NCBI GenBank assembly: GCA_016935235.1
Contig: JAFGRJ010000124.1
Coordinates: forward strand, 1-45,377
Direction: 5' to 3'
Length of the DNA: 45,377 nt
Source of the DNA: Candidatus Cloacimonadota bacterium
GTDB lineage: Bacteria > Cloacimonadota > Cloacimonadia > Cloacimonadales > TCS61
The notes under the pieces were generated by a model. It had not been told where the DNA came from and searched no databases. It saw only the letters and a list, made by a program, of their open reading frames with translations. Numbering within the stretch: position 1 is the first letter of the stretch; the number at the start of each line of letters is the position of its first letter. A program made the translations under genes and the position numbers. Of this stretch, positions 2,934-11,187 are shown one piece after another.

Positions 2934-3410
2934 TCAGAGAGTTTTCAGCAGGACCACAGCCGTTGCGGTTACTGCTTTACCGCGTCCTGTTATTCCCAGG
3001 CCTTCTTCGGTGGTTGCTTTGAGGGAAACATTCCACAGGTCAGTATGCAGATCGCTGGCAAGATTCTCCTGCATTTTTTTCAGGTAAGTCTGCAGTTTGG
3101 GCTTTTCAGCGCAGATGGTTGCATCGAGGTTGCCGATCTCATAACCCGTGTTATCCATGAGGTCGGTTATTTCCCGCAGCAGAATACGGCTGTCAATATC
3201 CCGGTAACGTTCGTCAGTATCAGGGAAATGCTGCCCGATATCTCCCTTGGCAAGTGCACCCAGGATGGCGTCTATCACAGCATGGATAAGTACATCGGCA
3301 TCAGAATGTCCCACCAGACCTTTAGGAAAGGGAATGTCCACTCCTCCCAGGATCAGTTTACCCCCGGTATCGCTCAGTTTATGAACATCATAACCATAGC
3401 CTATGCGCAT
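2934..3410 (-). CDS. ispF: 2-C-methyl-D-erythritol 2,4-cyclodiphosphate synthase
   Basis: MRIGYGYDVH, GHSDADVLIHA, GDIGQHFPD, KATTEEGLG. Start placed at ATG 3410 with GGAGG upstream. Confidence 0.97.
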   Translation of the reverse strand: MRIGYGYDVHKLSDTGGKLILGGVDIPFPKGLVGHSDADVLIHAVIDAILGALAKGDIGQHFPDTDERYRDIDSRILLREITDLMDNTGYEIGNLDATICAEKPKLQTYLKKMQENLASDLHTDLWNVSLKATTEEGLGITGRGKAVTATAVVLLKTL

Positions 3411-3423
3411 ACTGTCCTCCCGA

Positions 3424-6141
3424 TCAGTCAACTGTTATGGATTTGGATACATTTTTGGGCACGTCCGGATGGACTCCGTGTTCCATGATACCGAGTTTAT
3501 CCAGTTTTTCCTTTTTCTTGATACTCATCCGCAGAGCCAGAAGCTGCAGCACGATTGTAGCAGAAAAGGTGGTCATCAGGGAATCGCCTGTCTTGGGCAG
3601 GATAATGTAACTCCAGCCGTAGTATCCCTCATCATTGGGATTCATGCGTGCATTTTCCAGTAACTCGTCATTTTCCTCAGCTATGACAAAAGTATCGCCC
3701 CCGCGGATTTTATGAGTGTTGATCTGGGATATGGTCAAATTGATGTCCTGTTCTTCCGGTCCGGTTACATAGATCAATGGGTAATTCCTGTAGACATGGC
3801 TGAAAAAATCACGTTCAGAGACGAAATTCTTGAAGAATTCAGCTCCTTCCCGGGAAAGGTCAAAGGGGAAAGTCCTCTTGAATATATAATTTACCAGAGA
3901 CTGGGTCATGCTTCTGATCTCTAGTTCCGGAATACCTTCCTCCCGGGCGGAAGATTCCAGTTCAATTGTCAACTGATTGTAGTTTTTCAACATTGCCTTC
4001 ATATTTTTAATACCGAAGACAGTATTTCTTCCCAGGATTGTATTGGGACCATGTTTGAATTCGGAAGCTTCACCGCCCTCAGCATGATTTAGAACCGTCT
4101 CCCTTATCTTGAGAGCACCTTCCTTGGCTACACCGGTGAGTTTAGTGGCCAGAATATGCATGGAAGGTTCCATGTATATTTTCCCGGCAGCATATTCGAT
4201 CTGTTCCGCGGTTGTTTCGATTGTTTCTTTGATGAGTTGGGGTATGTCGTTAATGGATTTCAGGCGGGTTGTCAGTTTATGATTGAGGAGAGCTGTTTTC
4301 TCCTGATCTGCAGAACTAATATTCCTGATATTCTGCTCCAGCACCTTGATAGCCAGGTAGTAGAAAAGGGTTATCTGGTTGATGAAACTTTTAGTTGCCG
4401 GTACAGCGATTTCCGGGCCACAGAAAATCGGGATTGAAACATCGCATTTTTCCTGTCCCAGCGTGGAATTCATATTATTAACCAGTACAATGGTTTTAAT
4501 ATCCAGTCCGAGATTCTCCACATAATTGAAGATATCGATCAGATCCTTGGTTTCACCGCTCTGGGATACACCCAGGATAACATCATTATTGCAAAGGCTT
4601 TTGGAGAACTGTCCCCGGAAATTACCGGGGAGCACGGGTATTATGTCCAGATTGGCGATATCATTGAAGAAAATGGAAGCGATCATGGCAGCATGGAAGG
4701 ATGTCCCACAGGCAATGGCATAGATATTACGGTTGAACCTGCAGCTGTTTGCAACTATATCAAGGAAATGTTCGATGCTCTGATTGAACTCCTTGACATC
4801 ATTCATCTCGCTGATCGAATCCAGCGCTTTGGCGAGGAGCAGTTTTTTCTTGTTGAAATATGAGTTCAGGAGTTCAATAAAAGTGTTTTTATTGGCAGAA
4901 AAGAAGTATTTCTTCTCAAAATCTTTCTTTACCAGTTCATTGTAAATGGAAACATACTGTTCTCTGACTTTCTGATAGAATGCATCGGCTTTTACGGAAG
5001 ATTCAAACCTGGAAAACAGGTTCGTCTGTTGGACCGGATCCTCGGTTTTAAGGATGTTTCTGCCCAGATCTTCGATATCATCAAAGAAATTTTCCTTTTT
5101 TAGCAGCTCAATCATACGGGTTCCCGTATTTGAGCCACCCTGGAAAAGCTTGATAAGCTTACCGGAGGTTTCAACTTCCGCATAGATTTCCTGCTCCATG
5201 AAATACTGAAAAGGGGGAACCAGTTCTGTGTCCTCTGCTCTCAGTTTTGATCTTACCGGCTGTTTGGGGATATGGTCACCCGGATTGATTATGAATTCAG
5301 CCTGGTTAGGTCGCTTGATCTTGAGTTTGCGGAGGGCGAAGATCTTATAGTCATCAACTTTGAATTCCACGAACTCACCTTCACGAAGATTAATCAGGGT
5401 TTTGGTGAATTTAAGTACAGCAGTAAGATCGGAAGAAGCCAGTCCAAACCTGTTACCCTCTATTTCACCGATGCCAAAATACAGGCTGCTCCCGCCCTTG
5501 ATAGCGTAAATGAATTCGGTATAGGGGTCCACAATCACAGCGGCATAGGAGCCCACCATCCTGGAACTGGCAATGATTATGGCATTGCGCATGGACTGGC
5601 AGCGAATCTGGGGATTGTGCTGGTCCCTGTCGCCGTGTCTTCCCAGTTCATTATCGAAATAATGCTCAATAGTATGAACCAGCATTTCGCCATCATTATT
5701 GGAAACAACATTATGACCTTCTGAGATCAGGAAACTTTTCAATTCCCGGGAATTGGTGATATTGCCATTATGAGCACCATAAATGTGCTGCTTGCATTTT
5801 ACTTCATGGGGTTGAGCGTTCTTGGGTGTGACAGTGCCAAATGTCGCCCAGCGAACCTGACCACAGAAAATTTTTCCCTGCTGCTTATCGATTCCCAGTG
5901 TTTTGACCAGAGTACTGGGTGCTCCTACATCCTTAAGCAGAATGATATTTTTCTTACCATCCTGGAATACACCGCCCGTGGAATCATAACCCCTGTATTC
6001 AAGGGCTTTTAGCAGTGTGGCAGCGTACTGGCCGAGCTTGACACTCACCCGGGCAAGTCCCAAACCCAGCACACCACAGCCCAGACCGGGGATAGGTATA
6101 TTAATCGTAAAATCAAATTTTCTTAATATCTTTTCTATCAT
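3424..6141 (-). CDS. glmS: Glutamine--fructose-6-phosphate aminotransferase-like protein (atypically long, 905 aa)
   Basis: CGVLG, LEYRGYDS, RWAT, QPH, HNG, ACGTS, SQSGET, GPEIAVPATK, EGALKIRE, KHGP and C-terminal PKNVSKSITVD. Has an N-terminal extension and two insertions. Confidence 0.85.
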   Translation of the reverse strand: MIEKILRKFDFTINIPIPGLGCGVLGLGLARVSVKLGQYAATLLKALEYRGYDSTGGVFQDGKKNIILLKDVGAPSTLVKTLGIDKQQGKIFCGQVRWATFGTVTPKNAQPHEVKCKQHIYGAHNGNITNSRELKSFLISEGHNVVSNNDGEMLVHTIEHYFDNELGRHGDRDQHNPQIRCQSMRNAIIIASSRMVGSYAAVIVDPYTEFIYAIKGGSSLYFGIGEIEGNRFGLASSDLTAVLKFTKTLINLREGEFVEFKVDDYKIFALRKLKIKRPNQAEFIINPGDHIPKQPVRSKLRAEDTELVPPFQYFMEQEIYAEVETSGKLIKLFQGGSNTGTRMIELLKKENFFDDIEDLGRNILKTEDPVQQTNLFSRFESSVKADAFYQKVREQYVSIYNELVKKDFEKKYFFSANKNTFIELLNSYFNKKKLLLAKALDSISEMNDVKEFNQSIEHFLDIVANSCRFNRNIYAIACGTSFHAAMIASIFFNDIANLDIIPVLPGNFRGQFSKSLCNNDVILGVSQSGETKDLIDIFNYVENLGLDIKTIVLVNNMNSTLGQEKCDVSIPIFCGPEIAVPATKSFINQITLFYYLAIKVLEQNIRNISSADQEKTALLNHKLTTRLKSINDIPQLIKETIETTAEQIEYAAGKIYMEPSMHILATKLTGVAKEGALKIRETVLNHAEGGEASEFKHGPNTILGRNTVFGIKNMKAMLKNYNQLTIELESSAREEGIPELEIRSMTQSLVNYIFKRTFPFDLSREGAEFFKNFVSERDFFSHVYRNYPLIYVTGPEEQDINLTISQINTHKIRGGDTFVIAEENDELLENARMNPNDEGYYGWSYIILPKTGDSLMTTFSATIVLQLLALRMSIKKKEKLDKLGIMEHGVHPDVPKNVSKSITVD

Positions 6142-6833
6142 ATTTTTTTTCCCTGATGCTTCCTCTTTATGAGAACTTCCGCCATCACAAGATCATCAAA
6201 ATAGGTAATCTTAAAATTAGTGCCGGTCGTTTCCCATCCGAATACGTTATGACCGTAATGCTCGAGAATAGCGGCATCATCTGTGAATTCAAGATGGTCT
6301 GCAACAGACTTCCGATGCATGTCCAAAATAAGTTCATAAGCGAACACCTGAGGAGTCAATGCGTTGAATAATCCCACTCGATCAATGGTTTTCTGAATTT
6401 TATCTCCGGTCATCACCTTTATGGTATCTCTTACTTTTACAACAGGGATAACAGCCTGCTTCAGTTTGACCAGACGAAGTAGATTACTGATATCCTCCGA
6501 CTTAACAAAGGGCCTTACTCCATCGTGGATAAGAACATATGCAGTTTCAGGAGCACATTTTCTCAGGGCGTTGAATACTGATTCCTGACGTGTGTTTCCA
6601 CCAGGGACTATCTGAATTTTAGTGGAGGGGTATTCCAATTTTATTTTATCGGAATAAACGGACATTTCCGGTGCCGGTAGGGTTATGATGATTGAATCGA
6701 TCCCGGGATGAGTGAAAAAAACATCGATGGTCCAGAAAAGCAGTGGTCTGCCGGCAAGGGACAGAAACTGCTTTTTGTGCAGGGTATTCATTCTGTTACC
6801 GCTTCCCCCAGCGGTTATGATGGCAGTATTCAA
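6138..6833 (-). CDS. ispD: 2-C-methyl-D-erythritol 4-phosphate cytidylyltransferase
   Basis: AGGSGNRM, KQFL, GGNTRQESV, IHDGVRPF, TPQVF, TDDA, NFKIT. TTG start with GAGGT RBS. Confidence 0.95.
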   Translation of the reverse strand: MNTAIITAGGSGNRMNTLHKKQFLSLAGRPLLFWTIDVFFTHPGIDSIIITLPAPEMSVYSDKIKLEYPSTKIQIVPGGNTRQESVFNALRKCAPETAYVLIHDGVRPFVKSEDISNLLRLVKLKQAVIPVVKVRDTIKVMTGDKIQKTIDRVGLFNALTPQVFAYELILDMHRKSVADHLEFTDDAAILEHYGHNVFGWETTGTNFKITYFDDLVMAEVLIKRKHQGKKI

Positions 6834-6853: not shown

Positions 6854-8590
6854 TCAGAAGCTAAACCCTTTTTCCTGAAACAGTTTCAAGCAGGCATCCA
6901 CAGTATCTGCATCATACAGGATACCTTTATTCCGGTCAATTTCCTCCAAAGCGCTTTTAATATCCATCTGTGGCCGGTATGGTCTGTGATTGATCATCGC
7001 TTCGGTCACATCCGCTACACATAGTATCCTGGCTTCAGGCAGTATTTCCCCTTTTTTCAGTCCTCGGGGATATCCTGAACCATTCATCAATTCATGGTGC
7101 TGCAGAACAATATCCGCTATGGGTTCTGGGAAGGCAATAGTATTGAGTATTTCATAACCGGTTTGAGGATGCAGTTTTATCAGGTCGAGTTCGGCTTTCA
7201 GCAATTTTCTTCCCTTTGCCAGGATATCGGAGGGGACATTCAATTTACCTATATCATGCAGTTGAGAAGCGGTGTATAATTTTTCTATCTGCTGTTCCGG
7301 CAGATTCATTTCCAGTGCAATTGCTTCCGCCAGCTTTGCCACGCGCCGCTGGTGTTGAGCGGTATAGGGATCCCTGATCTCTATGGCTGCTATAAGACCT
7401 TTAACGGTGTCATGATACAGTTTCCTGGACTTAAGATAACTCATACGCAGCTTTATCTTGTCACTTCTCTTCTCGGTAATGTCATGCAGTATTGCTATAA
7501 ATCCCCGGAATTGCCCATTCTCGCTCATCGGTATGTGAGTAAGTGTGATATATTTTCTTCTTTCCTTTCCTTTTCCCAGAGTAAATTCGCTACTGGTGGT
7601 TGCAGAGGTTTCAGATCTACTGTCGCATATTTCCACAAATCGTTGCAGGTGGCTGAATTCGGAGAGATTTCTGCCCACGGCATCCTGTTCCGGTAATTTA
7701 AGCATCGCAATTGCAGCTTGGTTAATGAAACTCAGTATACCGGAGTCATCAACAATCAGAATTCCTTCTTTTATCGAAGAAACTATATTTCGCAGGTCTT
7801 CCTCTTTTTTCCTGGTATCGACCAGTGTGTTGTAACATTGGGTGATATCGGTTATAATGCCCTGAAGAGCAACTGGTTGTCCTTTGTCCCCCCAGGTAAT
7901 GACATTGGTCTGATGGAACCACCTGGGATTACCAGAGCTATCTATGATCTTGTACTCATAATAGGGAGGTGCTTTCCCCGACACTATTTTCTGCCATTCC
8001 TCTTCATAGTATTTCTTCATATCAGGATGCAATAATTTGCACAATAGATCAGGAGTATCATAGAAAGCCTTCTGATCGTAACCGGTCAACTTCTTACAGG
8101 CGGGATTGATGAATTCGATTTTTCGGTCTGGTATTGAGATCTTGAAAATAATATCACCCAGATCAGCTGTCAGCCGCGAATACATTTCTGTGCTATGATG
8201 CCTTATTTTATCCTGTTCATGCTTGTAAAGGGCGATTTCCATAACCGCTTTAAGTTCAGATACCTCGTAAGGCTTCATTATATAGCCATAGGGTTCTGAG
8301 GTCACAGCCTTCTGGATCGTCTGCCTGTCGGCATGAGCGGTAAGAAAAATTACCGGGATATTCATTTCTTTATACATTATCTCAGCAGCTTGAGTTCCTT
8401 CCATTTTTCCGGACAGCACAATATCCATGATAACCAGGTCGGGTTTTTCCTGCCGGGCTGTGATGAGTGCTTTCTCTGCAGTGTTGACAGCTCCCAGGGC
8501 AACATAACCAAATTGCTTCACATTCATCCGGATTTCTTCTGCAATGATGTTCTCATCTTCCACAATTAATATTTTTTTTCTAGATGACAT
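6854..8590 (-). CDS. Response regulator with REC-PAS-PAS-HD-GYP architecture (cyclic dinucleotide phosphodiesterase)
   Basis: REC (ILIVEDE, VIMDI, FLTA, KP), two PAS/PAC repeats, and HD-GYP motifs (RDPYT, LHDIGK, HHE, GSGYPRGL, HRPYR). Confidence 0.92.
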   Translation of the reverse strand: MSSRKKILIVEDENIIAEEIRMNVKQFGYVALGAVNTAEKALITARQEKPDLVIMDIVLSGKMEGTQAAEIMYKEMNIPVIFLTAHADRQTIQKAVTSEPYGYIMKPYEVSELKAVMEIALYKHEQDKIRHHSTEMYSRLTADLGDIIFKISIPDRKIEFINPACKKLTGYDQKAFYDTPDLLCKLLHPDMKKYYEEEWQKIVSGKAPPYYEYKIIDSSGNPRWFHQTNVITWGDKGQPVALQGIITDITQCYNTLVDTRKKEEDLRNIVSSIKEGILIVDDSGILSFINQAAIAMLKLPEQDAVGRNLSEFSHLQRFVEICDSRSETSATTSSEFTLGKGKERRKYITLTHIPMSENGQFRGFIAILHDITEKRSDKIKLRMSYLKSRKLYHDTVKGLIAAIEIRDPYTAQHQRRVAKLAEAIALEMNLPEQQIEKLYTASQLHDIGKLNVPSDILAKGRKLLKAELDLIKLHPQTGYEILNTIAFPEPIADIVLQHHELMNGSGYPRGLKKGEILPEARILCVADVTEAMINHRPYRPQMDIKSALEEIDRNKGILYDADTVDACLKLFQEKGFSF

Positions 8591-8724: not shown

Positions 8725-9060
8725 TTAATGATCGCAGGGATTAGTTCCCGTTTCCAGTTTGTTCTCAAGAAAGAGGTTGATCAAATCCTGCGGCAACTGA
8801 CCTGTGGCTCCGGTTATAACCTCGATATTCTGCATGTTGAAATGCTGTCTGGCTCTATGTCCCATGCCACCACATATGACAACACTGATTCCCTTATCAG
8901 CCAGGAAATGAGGATATGCTCCCGGTTCATGGACGGGTGGTATAAGAGTCTCCTCGCTTTTGATTTCTTTATTATCAACGGTGTAAACAGCAAAATTCTG
9001 ACAATGACCAAAATGCTGTGCTAAAAGCCCATTATTCACCGGTATAGCTATTTTCTTCAT
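8725..9060 (-). CDS. NifB/NifX family (IPR003731-type) metallocluster-binding protein
   Basis: KIAIP, HFGHC, ICGGMG and C-terminal NPCDH. Start at ATG 9060 after AAGGAG. Confidence 0.9.
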   Translation of the reverse strand: MKKIAIPVNNGLLAQHFGHCQNFAVYTVDNKEIKSEETLIPPVHEPGAYPHFLADKGISVVICGGMGHRARQHFNMQNIEVITGATGQLPQDLINLFLENKLETGTNPCDH

Positions 9061-9113
9061 TTTATCTCCTTTTAAACTGAAATCCAATATTATCGGAAGA
9101 GCAACAGACGGAT

Positions 9114-9452
9114 TTAAAACTGCTTCAACTTATTATCCTTATACGCACGGTATGCTTCATCGACCGTCATACCACCTGCTCCTACCAATATCCTGACGCC
9201 TGACGTGTTAAGAACTCTGGCAGCATTATTGCCGGGACCATTTCCAGTAATAAGGACACCGACTCCTGCTTCAATAATCTTCTGGGCTGTCCTCGGCCCG
9301 GCTCCATGAGCAACACTGGTTATGGCACTGTTGTCGATAATCTGTTTACTGTTATCTTTCTCGTCAAGGATGATAAAATACTCCGACCGGCCAAAGCGAG
9401 GATCGATCGGTGAATTCATCTCCAAACCCGTTGTACTGAAAGCTATTTTCAT
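9114..9452 (-). CDS. NifB/NifX family protein (MTH1175/IssA-like)
   Basis: MKIAF, DPRFGRSEYF, HGAG, LITGN.PG.NA. Confidence 0.9.
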   Translation of the reverse strand: MKIAFSTTGLEMNSPIDPRFGRSEYFIILDEKDNSKQIIDNSAITSVAHGAGPRTAQKIIEAGVGVLITGNGPGNNAARVLNTSGVRILVGAGGMTVDEAYRAYKDNKLKQF

Positions 9453-10336
9453 GTATCCTCCCCTGATATCTGTTTCAAAATAATATCCCAGGAATTGTTT
9501 ATCTTCAGGATGATATTTTCGGCATCAGTCTCCATAATGGTTTTTCCCGCTATCATCGCGTCTGAGAATGATCTGGAAAAAGGTATTTCAGCCAGCAGGG
9601 CTATTTCCCTGCTGACCAGGAAATCCTTTATTTCTGAGCTTATCTTCTCATTGAGGTCGCATTTATTTATGATACATCCTGCTGGCAGTCCAAACTTGCT
9701 TAACAGTATGTGTACCCTTTGCAGATCGTGAAAGGCGGAGCGACTGGGCTCGGTTACCATGACAACATAACCTGCTCCGGCAAGAGATGATATCACTGGA
9801 CAACCGATACCGGGGGAACCATCTACCAGGATAATATTTATTTTCTCCTTCTCCGCCAGCTTTCTGGCTTCTTTTTTCACTTTTGTGACCAGCTTTCCGG
9901 AATTTTCCGCCCCTATATCAAGTTCTGCATGAACAAGGATATTATCAAATCTGGTCTGTGAAATCTGAAAAATTCCGACTTTTCTTTCCGGTAGTGAAAT
10001 AGCCTGCTCCGGGCATATATGGAAACAATATCCACAACCCTCGCAGGATAGAGGATCTACAGAAAATCCCGTTCCGCCCGCATTGATTGCGTGGAAGCGG
10101 CAGATCTGAAAACATCTGGCACATGACGAGCAGAGGGAAGTGTTTATTTTTGCTTCCACACCACTGAAAAAAATCTCGGAAAGAATAGCCTGTGGCCTCG
10201 TTACAAGATGCATATCGGCAGCATCAACATCGCAGTCAGCCAGGATACAGTTTCCCCCTAATAGATAAGACATGGCGGCAGTGATCGAGGTTTTCCCGGT
10301 TCCACCCTTGCCTGATATAAAAACGATCTCTTTCAT
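9449..10336 (-). CDS. MinD-superfamily P-loop ATPase with inserted 2x[4Fe-4S] ferredoxin domain
   Basis: SGKGGTGKT, DCDVDAAD, CSSCARC..C, CEGCGYC...CP, ENSGKLV, DGSPGIGCPV, VTEP. Confidence 0.92.
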   Translation of the reverse strand: MKEIVFISGKGGTGKTSITAAMSYLLGGNCILADCDVDAADMHLVTRPQAILSEIFFSGVEAKINTSLCSSCARCFQICRFHAINAGGTGFSVDPLSCEGCGYCFHICPEQAISLPERKVGIFQISQTRFDNILVHAELDIGAENSGKLVTKVKKEARKLAEKEKINIILVDGSPGIGCPVISSLAGAGYVVMVTEPSRSAFHDLQRVHILLSKFGLPAGCIINKCDLNEKISSEIKDFLVSREIALLAEIPFSRSFSDAMIAGKTIMETDAENIILKINNSWDIILKQISGEDT

Positions 10337-11187
10337 GCCAGTTGCAGGTTATTCGCTATTACACTCAAGGCTTCCCGGATCACCGGGATCTCCTGATACA
10401 ATAATCTGCCTGCGGAATATAGCTCCGCGGCTCTTCTCATGTAGGGTATACAGGCAATTATTCTGTAATTCGCAGAATGGCAGAATTCAATAATGGTACT
10501 GTCAAATTCATCTCCTGCCTGATTCAGGACAATGCTGAAGGATTTATCCAATTTCTCCATGGTTTTTATGGCCAGCTTCAGGTCATGAAAACCAAAAGGA
10601 GTTGGTTCTGTGACCAGAATTACATGTTCAGCGGATTTTGTGACCTCTAGCATGGGACATGATGTACCCGGGGGAGAATCAAATATGAGAAGATCGTCAC
10701 TTGCTGCAATTCCTTTCAGATAGGATATGGTAGCGGAGATAAGAGGTACTGCTGAGACCTGTCCTATCTCCAGGTGGCTGTCGACCAGCTGGAGTTTCTT
10801 GCTGATTATGGAATGATAGAGAATACCACCTGTTTCACCGTGCATGGGCAGGGATGAAGTGGGACATAATTCCGAACAGGCAAAGCAACTATGGCACAAC
10901 TCCGGGAAAAGCATTATTCGATCCGGTATTTTCAGAACTGCGTTAAATCTGCATAATTCCTGACACTTACCGCACATTATGCAGGTGCGTTCAATCCACT
11001 CCGGGATCATCCTGCATATCTTTTCGGAATGAACCTGCCTTCCTTTTAAAAAAATACCGGAATTCGGTTCTTCCACATCAAGATCAGCCAATATAACCTT
11101 CCGCTTCTCCGCCAGAAATGCCGAGAGATTCACCGCCAGGGTAGTTTTTCCTGTTCCACCTTTACCGCTGGCTATGGCAATGATCAA
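10333..11187 (-). CDS. MinD-superfamily P-loop ATPase with inserted 2x[4Fe-4S] ferredoxin domain
   Basis: SGKGGTGKTT, DLDVEEPN, CIMCGKC...C, CHSCFAC...CP, DSPPGTSCP, VTEPTPFG.HDL. Confidence 0.92.
   Translation of the reverse strand: MIIAIASGKGGTGKTTLAVNLSAFLAEKRKVILADLDVEEPNSGIFLKGRQVHSEKICRMIPEWIERTCIMCGKCQELCRFNAVLKIPDRIMLFPELCHSCFACSELCPTSSLPMHGETGGILYHSIISKKLQLVDSHLEIGQVSAVPLISATISYLKGIAASDDLLIFDSPPGTSCPMLEVTKSAEHVILVTEPTPFGFHDLKLAIKTMEKLDKSFSIVLNQAGDEFDSTIIEFCHSANYRIIACIPYMRRAAELYSAGRLLYQEIPVIREALSVIANNLQLA

Follow-up and report, generated by a model that had tools for sequence, protein, structure and literature searches.

A long-form GlmS-like gene between ispD and ispF

The stretch of DNA analysed here, hereafter the window, is a stretch of 45,377 nucleotides, positions 1–45,377 of contig JAFGRJ010000124.1, from a genome of Candidatus Cloacimonadota (assembly GCA_016935235.1). 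Positions 3424..6141 of its reverse strand, between ispD and ispF, contain an open reading frame (ORF) whose translation of 905 residues is the probable precursor of a long-form GlmS-like amidotransferase/isomerase, with a class II glutaminase domain (GATase_6/7) followed by two SIS subdomains according to Pfam. The catalytic cysteine of the glutaminase domain is residue 22, and it is preceded by a leader of 21 residues (6079..6141) that is a putative propeptide, judging from its conservation, its use of synonymous codons and the low confidence with which it is modelled. The predicted scissile junction is Gly21/Cys22 (GGC TGT, 6076..6081; the slash marks the junction here and in the motifs below), since Cys22 aligns with the cysteine at the N-terminus, residue 1 or 2, in models and structures of PurF and GlmS.

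The glutaminase domain, of the N-terminal nucleophile (Ntn) type, extends from residue 22 to approximately residue 300 (5242..6078), as indicated by a match of residues 22–331 to NF001484 and by alignment to E. coli GlmS. It is followed by a first insertion of approximately 120–150 residues, around residues 301–455 (4777..5241; boundaries approximate), and by the isomerase part (3427..4776; Pfam SIS domain at residues 471–598), which is formed by the two SIS subdomains and a C-terminal tail that reads PKNVSKSITVD. Inside the isomerase part there is a second insertion, approximately at residues 709–785 (3787–4017). The existence of the two insertions follows from the match to the NCBIfam glmS model TIGR01135, which is split into three pieces (residues 22–331, 453–723 and approximately 792–904); in the first gap residue 331 corresponds to model position 270 and residue 453 to model position 276. 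A full-length AlphaFold2 (AF2) model obtained with a 58-sequence alignment, with a predicted local distance difference test score (pLDDT) of 80.2, shows both insertions as helical, with helices at residues 314–468 for the first one and, for the second, helices at residues 711–775 to which nothing in the model match corresponds. The best Foldseek matches of this structure were human GFAT-1 and E. coli GlmS (template modelling score of 0.77, normalised to 2j6h).

The score obtained with TIGR01135 was 273.1 bits, below the cut-off of 418.05. The source genome, which is 93.5% complete, also encodes a canonical glmS of 612 residues on another contig (836.7 bits with the same model) whose product starts with MCGIVG and ends with NLAKSVTVE, as well as a canonical purF, also on another contig, starting with MCGIFG; when the genome was searched with the GATase_6 model (PF13522), only these two proteins and the long form were matched. 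Given the presence of a canonical glmS and a score far under the cut-off, the long form is by sequence criteria a paralogue of the housekeeping GlmS and not the organism's own GlmS, and it can be assigned to a distinct long-form GlmS-like family of approximately 830–930 residues with two helical insertions.

The two-part architecture and the fold are the same as in GlmS/GFAT (E. coli GlmS, 1JXA/2J6H, and human GFAT-1, 6R4E), although these enzymes have approximately 610 residues and lack the insertions. Both active sites were mapped by aligning the protein with E. coli GlmS 1JXA in phmmer. In the glutamine site, R50, R97, W98, T100, N125/G126 and D150 correspond to Arg26, Arg73, Trp74, Thr76, Asn98/Gly99 and Asp123 of the E. 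coli protein, and in the isomerase site S526-Q-S-G-E-T531 corresponds to residues 347–352, and K678, E681 and H697 to Lys485, Glu488 and His504; the K-S-x-T-V pattern of the tail is also shared, the segment NVSKSITVD being equivalent to the GlmS tail that includes Lys603, with this lysine kept as K900. All these residues, together with Cys22, are invariant in 58/58 leader-bearing sequences of the family, and both sets are also common to the orthologues that start with Met-Cys described below. Seven of nine glutamine-site residues (Arg26, Arg73, Trp74, Thr76, His77, His86, Asn98, Gly99 and Asp123, a list drawn in part from PMC7000685) are kept and invariant. The other two, His77 and His86, are replaced by Phe101 and Gln110, and their human equivalents, His99 and His108, are listed in the glutamate pocket of GFAT in PMC7000685. 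In addition, the HNGI segment of GlmS/GFAT is changed to HNGN (residues 124–127), and residues 94–102 read GQVRWATFG.

The leader before the catalytic cysteine

The N-terminus of the protein reads MIEKILRKFDFTINIPIPGLG-CGVLG. The first-pass annotation of this DNA had described a catalytic cysteine placed behind a 21-residue leader, and the sequence bears this out: the codon for Cys22 is TGT at 6078–6076, the codons just before it are CTG GGC (Leu-Gly), and the ATG at 6141–6139 shares an ATGA overlap with the ispD stop. Direct reading of the sequence between this ATG and Cys22 revealed no in-frame ATG, GTG or TTG; the next in-frame start-type codons lie past the cysteine, a GTG at Val24 and a TTG at Leu27. 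The 120 best database relatives are approximately 57–75% identical to the protein and, where they carry a name, are labelled Cloacimonadota. In 119 of them the cysteine is at position 14–45, and none has a Met-Cys start; P0056, the only other one, is a fragment that lacks its N-terminus and starts downstream of the cysteine. Apart from the oddity of the leader itself, nothing suggests that a Met-Cys start is concealed by a misplaced start call, a frameshift or an error in the sequence, whereas the leader recurs in these 119 relatives from independent assemblies and a GGN codon occupies position -1 in all 23 Cloacimonadota loci examined. The independent conserved copies, together with the lack of an alternative in-frame start, refute such an artefact, to which we give practically no weight.

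Conservation of the leader and of the Gly-Cys junction, which the first-pass annotation had singled out as informative, was evident when the homologues were aligned. In a pool of 142 full-length leader-bearing proteins, the leader is 13–71 residues long (median 21), with Gly at -1 in 141/142, Gly at -3 in 134/142 and Pro at -6 in 140/142; hydrophobic residues occupy positions -5, -7, -9 and -11 in every or almost every one of them, and Pro or polar residues occupy positions -8, -10 and -12. In Cloacimonadota the leader ends as h-P-h-h-G-h-G/C, where h is a hydrophobic residue, and in the protein from the window the conserved core, approximately residues 9–21, shows the same alternation of hydrophobic and polar residues with P16, G19 and G21. 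The pattern is consistent with an amphipathic strand that leads into a P-h-h-G-h-G turn. The same leader is found in the Delongbacteria-labelled clade and in the 65%-GC clade described below. At the DNA level, 47 independent copies gave Gly-1 in 47/47, Gly-3 in 47/47 and Pro-6 in 46/47, and because all four synonymous codons are used at each of these positions, the selection that the alignments indicate on the leader is purifying and acts on the protein. The pLDDT of the leader was below 50 in the full-length AF2 model and in a model of the N-terminal domain, the body of which reached 88.9; these low values would suit a segment for which the fold of the mature enzyme has no room, and they are uninformative on the fold of the precursor.

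A leader of approximately 21 residues, with basic residues near its N-terminus and small residues before an invariant cysteine, is reminiscent of a lipoprotein signal peptide, which would be cut by signal peptidase II in a protein that is exported and lipidated; in fact, a loose lipobox rule of the PROSITE type is satisfied by 58 of the 142 leaders. Nevertheless, a strict rule (G+LPP) is passed by 0/142, because the residue at -3 is Gly, and the leader from the window fails both rules. The uncharged run before the cysteine is only 7–11 residues long in 133/142 leaders, with a median of four Pro/Gly, and at -8, -10 and -12 there are charged residues in alternation with hydrophobic ones. Furthermore, the orthologues start with Met-Cys and are hence cytoplasmic, the substrates are cytoplasmic too, and lipidation would prevent the cysteine from acting as a nucleophile, which is at odds with the conserved catalytic site. 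The lipobox rules, the short Pro/Gly-rich uncharged run and the Met-Cys orthologues led us to reject a lipoprotein signal, which we regard as very improbable.

Relatives with and without the leader

An exhaustive search of representative genomes revealed long-form relatives in other phyla, 41–48% identical to the protein from the window, in which residue 2 aligns with residue 22 of the latter. Species-representative genomes contain at least 831 loci that encode a long-form relative, and 79 of these were examined. In all 56 non-Cloacimonadota loci a start codon is found directly before the cysteine (53 ATG, one GTG and two scored as Met-Cys by the printed translation), whereas the 23 Cloacimonadota loci have the leader in addition to the GGN codon mentioned above. 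The 56 loci are labelled Myxococcota/Polyangiales, Acidobacteriota/Thermoanaerobaculia, Bdellovibrionales or similar, and neither ispD nor ispF was found near any of them. A comparison of 51 ORFs flanking nine Met-Cys loci against Pfam detected no conserved partner gene and no clue to the function; DapD-like genes adjoin two related loci only. A canonical glmS is also present in four of five non-Cloacimonadota genomes with a long form that were checked. In the fifth (G123, the genome of locus L111), a 1.5-Mb metagenome-assembled genome labelled Bdellovibrionales, the long form was the sole GlmS-like gene found; should this assembly be complete, the long form would be able to take the place of GlmS.

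The Met-Cys long forms have the GQVRWATFG and HNGN segments and the HGVHPDVPKNVSKSITVD tail. The two altered motifs, which the first-pass annotation had presented along with the leader, are indeed present in the protein from the window, but since they are invariant in the Met-Cys orthologues they are family traits unrelated to the leader. The same annotation had considered that close homologues with a Met-Cys start would point to a sequence error; such starts were found only among the distant orthologues from other phyla, of approximately 41–50% identity, which by their sequences constitute a natural control and not a sign of error.

A search with the relative P0130 yielded 118 further proteins: 95 start with Met-Cys, 20 bear a leader, one has Met at -1 behind an upstream start call and two are fragments. 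The leader-bearing proteins fall into two groups, one of 908-residue forms, three of them labelled Candidatus Delongbacteria, and one labelled Acidobacteria. Two metagenome loci of the latter group (L125 and L126, with 64–65% GC) have GGC at -1 and a leader that ends as P-x-P-G-x-G/CGVLG, and neither ispD nor ispF was detected within 4 kb of them; a metagenome scan for the P0130 clade that covered 80 loci recovered two members of the clade and one Met-Cys long form, the rest being ordinary GlmS. In a tree of 66 rows inferred by a quick method (LG+G4) after stripping the leaders, the Cloacimonadota proteins join the Delongbacteria-like forms with a support of 100 and the P0130 group is placed with two Met-Cys forms with a support of 99, while the backbone between the four long-form clades was not resolved; the outgroup row, the GlmS of the source genome, has an oddly long branch of 3.72. 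Both a single origin of the leader with later losses and two to three gains fit this tree, in which the count of five changes of leader state includes P0314, scored as leader-bearing despite having Met at -1.

When 142 leader-bearing and 104 Met-Cys proteins were compared, the mature part differed at only four positions in all three leader-bearing groups (25 L/I, 234 L/I, 241 A/S and 572 I/L), all of them conservative, and neither decay of the glutaminase nor compensating changes were apparent in the leader-bearing proteins. Given that only these four positions differ, the mature enzymes with and without a leader should work alike. This comparison bears on the possibility that the leader is never removed, in which case the glutaminase would be silent, or would use another mechanism, and the enzyme would use free ammonia or act only as a sugar-phosphate isomerase or as a regulator. 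In line with this idea, the glutamine-pocket histidines of GlmS/GFAT are replaced by F101 and Q110, and the Cloacimonadota are amino-acid fermenters of ammonia-rich habitats. However, the Met-Cys orthologues have the same F101 and Q110, so these replacements are unrelated to the leader; Cys22 and the other glutamine-site residues are invariant in the leader-bearing sequences, whereas a dead domain should drift; and the two forms are not separated by compensating changes. The silent glutaminase that uses free ammonia, which the first-pass annotation had offered as one of its two explanations, thus found no support, and we consider a permanently retained leader to be unlikely.

Proposed maturation of the long form and its genomic setting

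Class II amidotransferases all need a free α-amino group on the nucleophilic cysteine. GlmS/GFAT are the textbook case in which this group is exposed by removal of the initiator methionine, whereas in the long form from the window the cysteine lies behind the 21-residue leader. As Cys22 would require a free α-amino group to act as the nucleophile, the leader is most likely removed. PMC7000685 indicates that GFAT requires the free amino group of its first cysteine and that N-terminal tags disturb the activity. In PMC7056826, many microbial and all eukaryotic PurF proteins are described as having a short propeptide whose autocatalytic cleavage exposes the cysteine, and PMC9140057 states that in MEROPS family C44 the residues before the cysteine are likewise cleaved autocatalytically. 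The PurF-type propeptides (B. subtilis, plant and animal) are located directly before the Ntn nucleophile, as is the leader described here.

By analogy with these systems, we think it probable that the leader is a PurF-type self-cleaved propeptide, cut at Gly21/Cys22 to give an enzyme of 884 residues. Translation would start at the ATG at 6141, coupled to the ispD stop, giving rise to the 21-residue leader; Cys22, as the catalytic nucleophile in need of a free α-amino group, would then be released by intramolecular autoproteolysis, in which its thiol would attack the preceding peptide bond and an N-to-S acyl shift would be followed by hydrolysis, as described for the PurF propeptides. The mature enzyme would equal the Met-Cys-starting orthologues of other phyla, and its product would be glucosamine 6-phosphate or a close amino-sugar phosphate. 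Self-cleavage is favoured because the nucleophile and the glutamine site are invariant, the mature enzymes with and without a leader appear equivalent, Gly-1 is invariant and there is no alternative start. Therefore, of the self-processing zymogen form of GlmS suggested in the first-pass annotation, the zymogen is the best-supported reading, but the protein is a paralogue from the long-form family and not GlmS.

A further resemblance to PurF is that some orthologues have no leader while their mature enzyme is equivalent in other respects, just as the PurF of E. coli compares with that of B. subtilis. On the other hand, the synthase domain of PurF is a phosphoribosyltransferase and that of the long form is a SIS isomerase; no Fe-S cluster motif of the PurF type was seen in the latter, although this motif was not specifically sought; and the PurF of the source genome starts with Met-Cys. 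The leader also has its own strongly conserved motif ending in G-x-G/C, unlike the PurF propeptides; the one from B. subtilis has 11 residues and ends in Glu. The large subunit of glutamate synthase is another class II amidotransferase in which Cys1 is exposed by removing a presequence of some tens of residues, by a mechanism that is not settled. Gly, which is small and flexible, also occupies position -1 in other self-processing Ntn hydrolases, namely the proteasome β subunits and some acylases, whose precursors are inactive until they are cleaved; nevertheless, these enzymes have Thr or Ser nucleophiles and unrelated sequences, and they are peptidases or amidases rather than amidotransferases. 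To judge from the literature searched, a propeptide of this kind would be new for the GlmS branch, whereas propeptides of Ntn amidotransferases were already known for PurF, and the hiding of an N-terminal nucleophile by a propeptide is also known for glutamate synthase.

With regard to the genomic setting, ispD (6138..6833, reverse strand; PF01128, 202.6 bits) is the only full copy in the genome, and ispF, directly downstream of the long-form gene (2934..3431, reverse strand; PF02542, 217.9 bits), is the only copy; the listed TTG start of ispF overlaps the end of the long-form gene by eight bases, and an in-frame ATG is found seven codons later. In two sets of Cloacimonadota loci (L007–L037 and L053–L116 being those with this gene order), ispD lies upstream of the long-form gene in 31/32 and 22/23 cases and ispF downstream in 24/32 and 21/23; some of the flanks are short or end at a contig edge, and L017 and L034 represent a single location. 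The long form is present in 102 of 121 genomes sampled across Cloacimonadota, and ispD and ispF adjoin each other in four of the five genomes tested from which it is absent. It is a matter of speculation that the presence of an amino-sugar gene inside this methylerythritol phosphate (MEP) pathway pair is linked to the isoprenoid lipid carrier of envelope synthesis. Beyond this pair, the reverse strand encodes a Peptidase_U32 protein of 667 residues directly after ispF (929–2932), a neighbour that is frequent but not universal in Cloacimonadota. The gene immediately upstream of ispD (6854–8590, in the same orientation) codes for a response regulator in which two PAS domains are combined with an HD domain of the HD-GYP type, and the region 8725–11187, also on the reverse strand, encodes two small Nitro_FeMo-Co proteins (similar to NifX and the C-terminal region of NifB) and then two MinD/ParA-type ATPases with 4Fe-4S ferredoxin motifs. 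At the edge of the window, on the forward strand (8–871), there is a gene for a protein with a Por_Secre_tail/FlgD_ig C-terminal sorting domain, a type IX secretion signal.

The position of the U32 gene raises the possibility that the leader is cut in trans, either by this protein or by a housekeeping protease. A U32 gene comes after ispF both in the window and in 13/23 and 11/32 Cloacimonadota loci, and the conserved motif of 13–16 residues could serve as a recognition site. Many U32 proteins are not known to be proteases, however, and the gene is missing nearby in 10/23 and 21/32 Cloacimonadota loci, some of which have flanks of only 1.5 kb; likewise, the U32 protein of the window had no match within 4 kb of L125 and L126, flanks that were searched only for this match and for ispD and ispF. 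Additionally, the PurF propeptides come off without a helper upon expression in E. coli, according to PMC7056826. A dedicated U32 protease was rejected as a general explanation because U32 is not universal near the leader-bearing loci, and removal by any separate protease seems to us rather doubtful.

Several observations weigh against self-cleavage as the favoured explanation. Cleavage itself is inferred. Full-text literature searches found no description of a propeptide in the GlmS family or of the long-form family, so the analogy with PurF crosses subfamilies. As two pocket histidines are replaced, the glutamine site is, from its sequence, not fully canonical, though that of the Met-Cys forms is equally so. 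Inside the otherwise leader-bearing Delongbacteria-like clade, P0361 and P0371, of 884 residues, start with Met-Cys, and their nearest relative, P0284, has a 25-residue leader (branch lengths of approximately 0.05); they could be accounted for either by a Gly-1 to Met change through which translation can begin internally or by an effect of gene calling. Finally, the 13–16 ordered positions of the leader amount to much more conservation than a throw-away spacer would call for, and this is a hint of some additional role beyond what self-cleavage explains. One such role, which we put forward as a tentative and rather unlikely extension of self-cleavage, is that of an autoinhibitory zymogen module whose cleavage would be conditional on assembly, substrate or a partner and would act as a one-way post-translational switch; the enzyme, presumably co-transcribed with ispD and ispF in Cloacimonadota, might then couple the supply of an amino-sugar phosphate, glucosamine 6-phosphate or another one, to that of the isoprenoid lipid carrier for the envelope.

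This analysis brings out a widespread and uncharacterised long-form paralogue, encoded by no fewer than those 831 loci, that exists beside the housekeeping GlmS, and a strongly conserved gene order, ispD, long form and ispF, that is maintained across a phylum. The orthologues with and without the leader represent a natural experiment, in which the sequence requirements of Ntn autoprocessing, i.e., the G-x-G/C motif, the Pro at -6 and the amphipathic strand, are directly testable.

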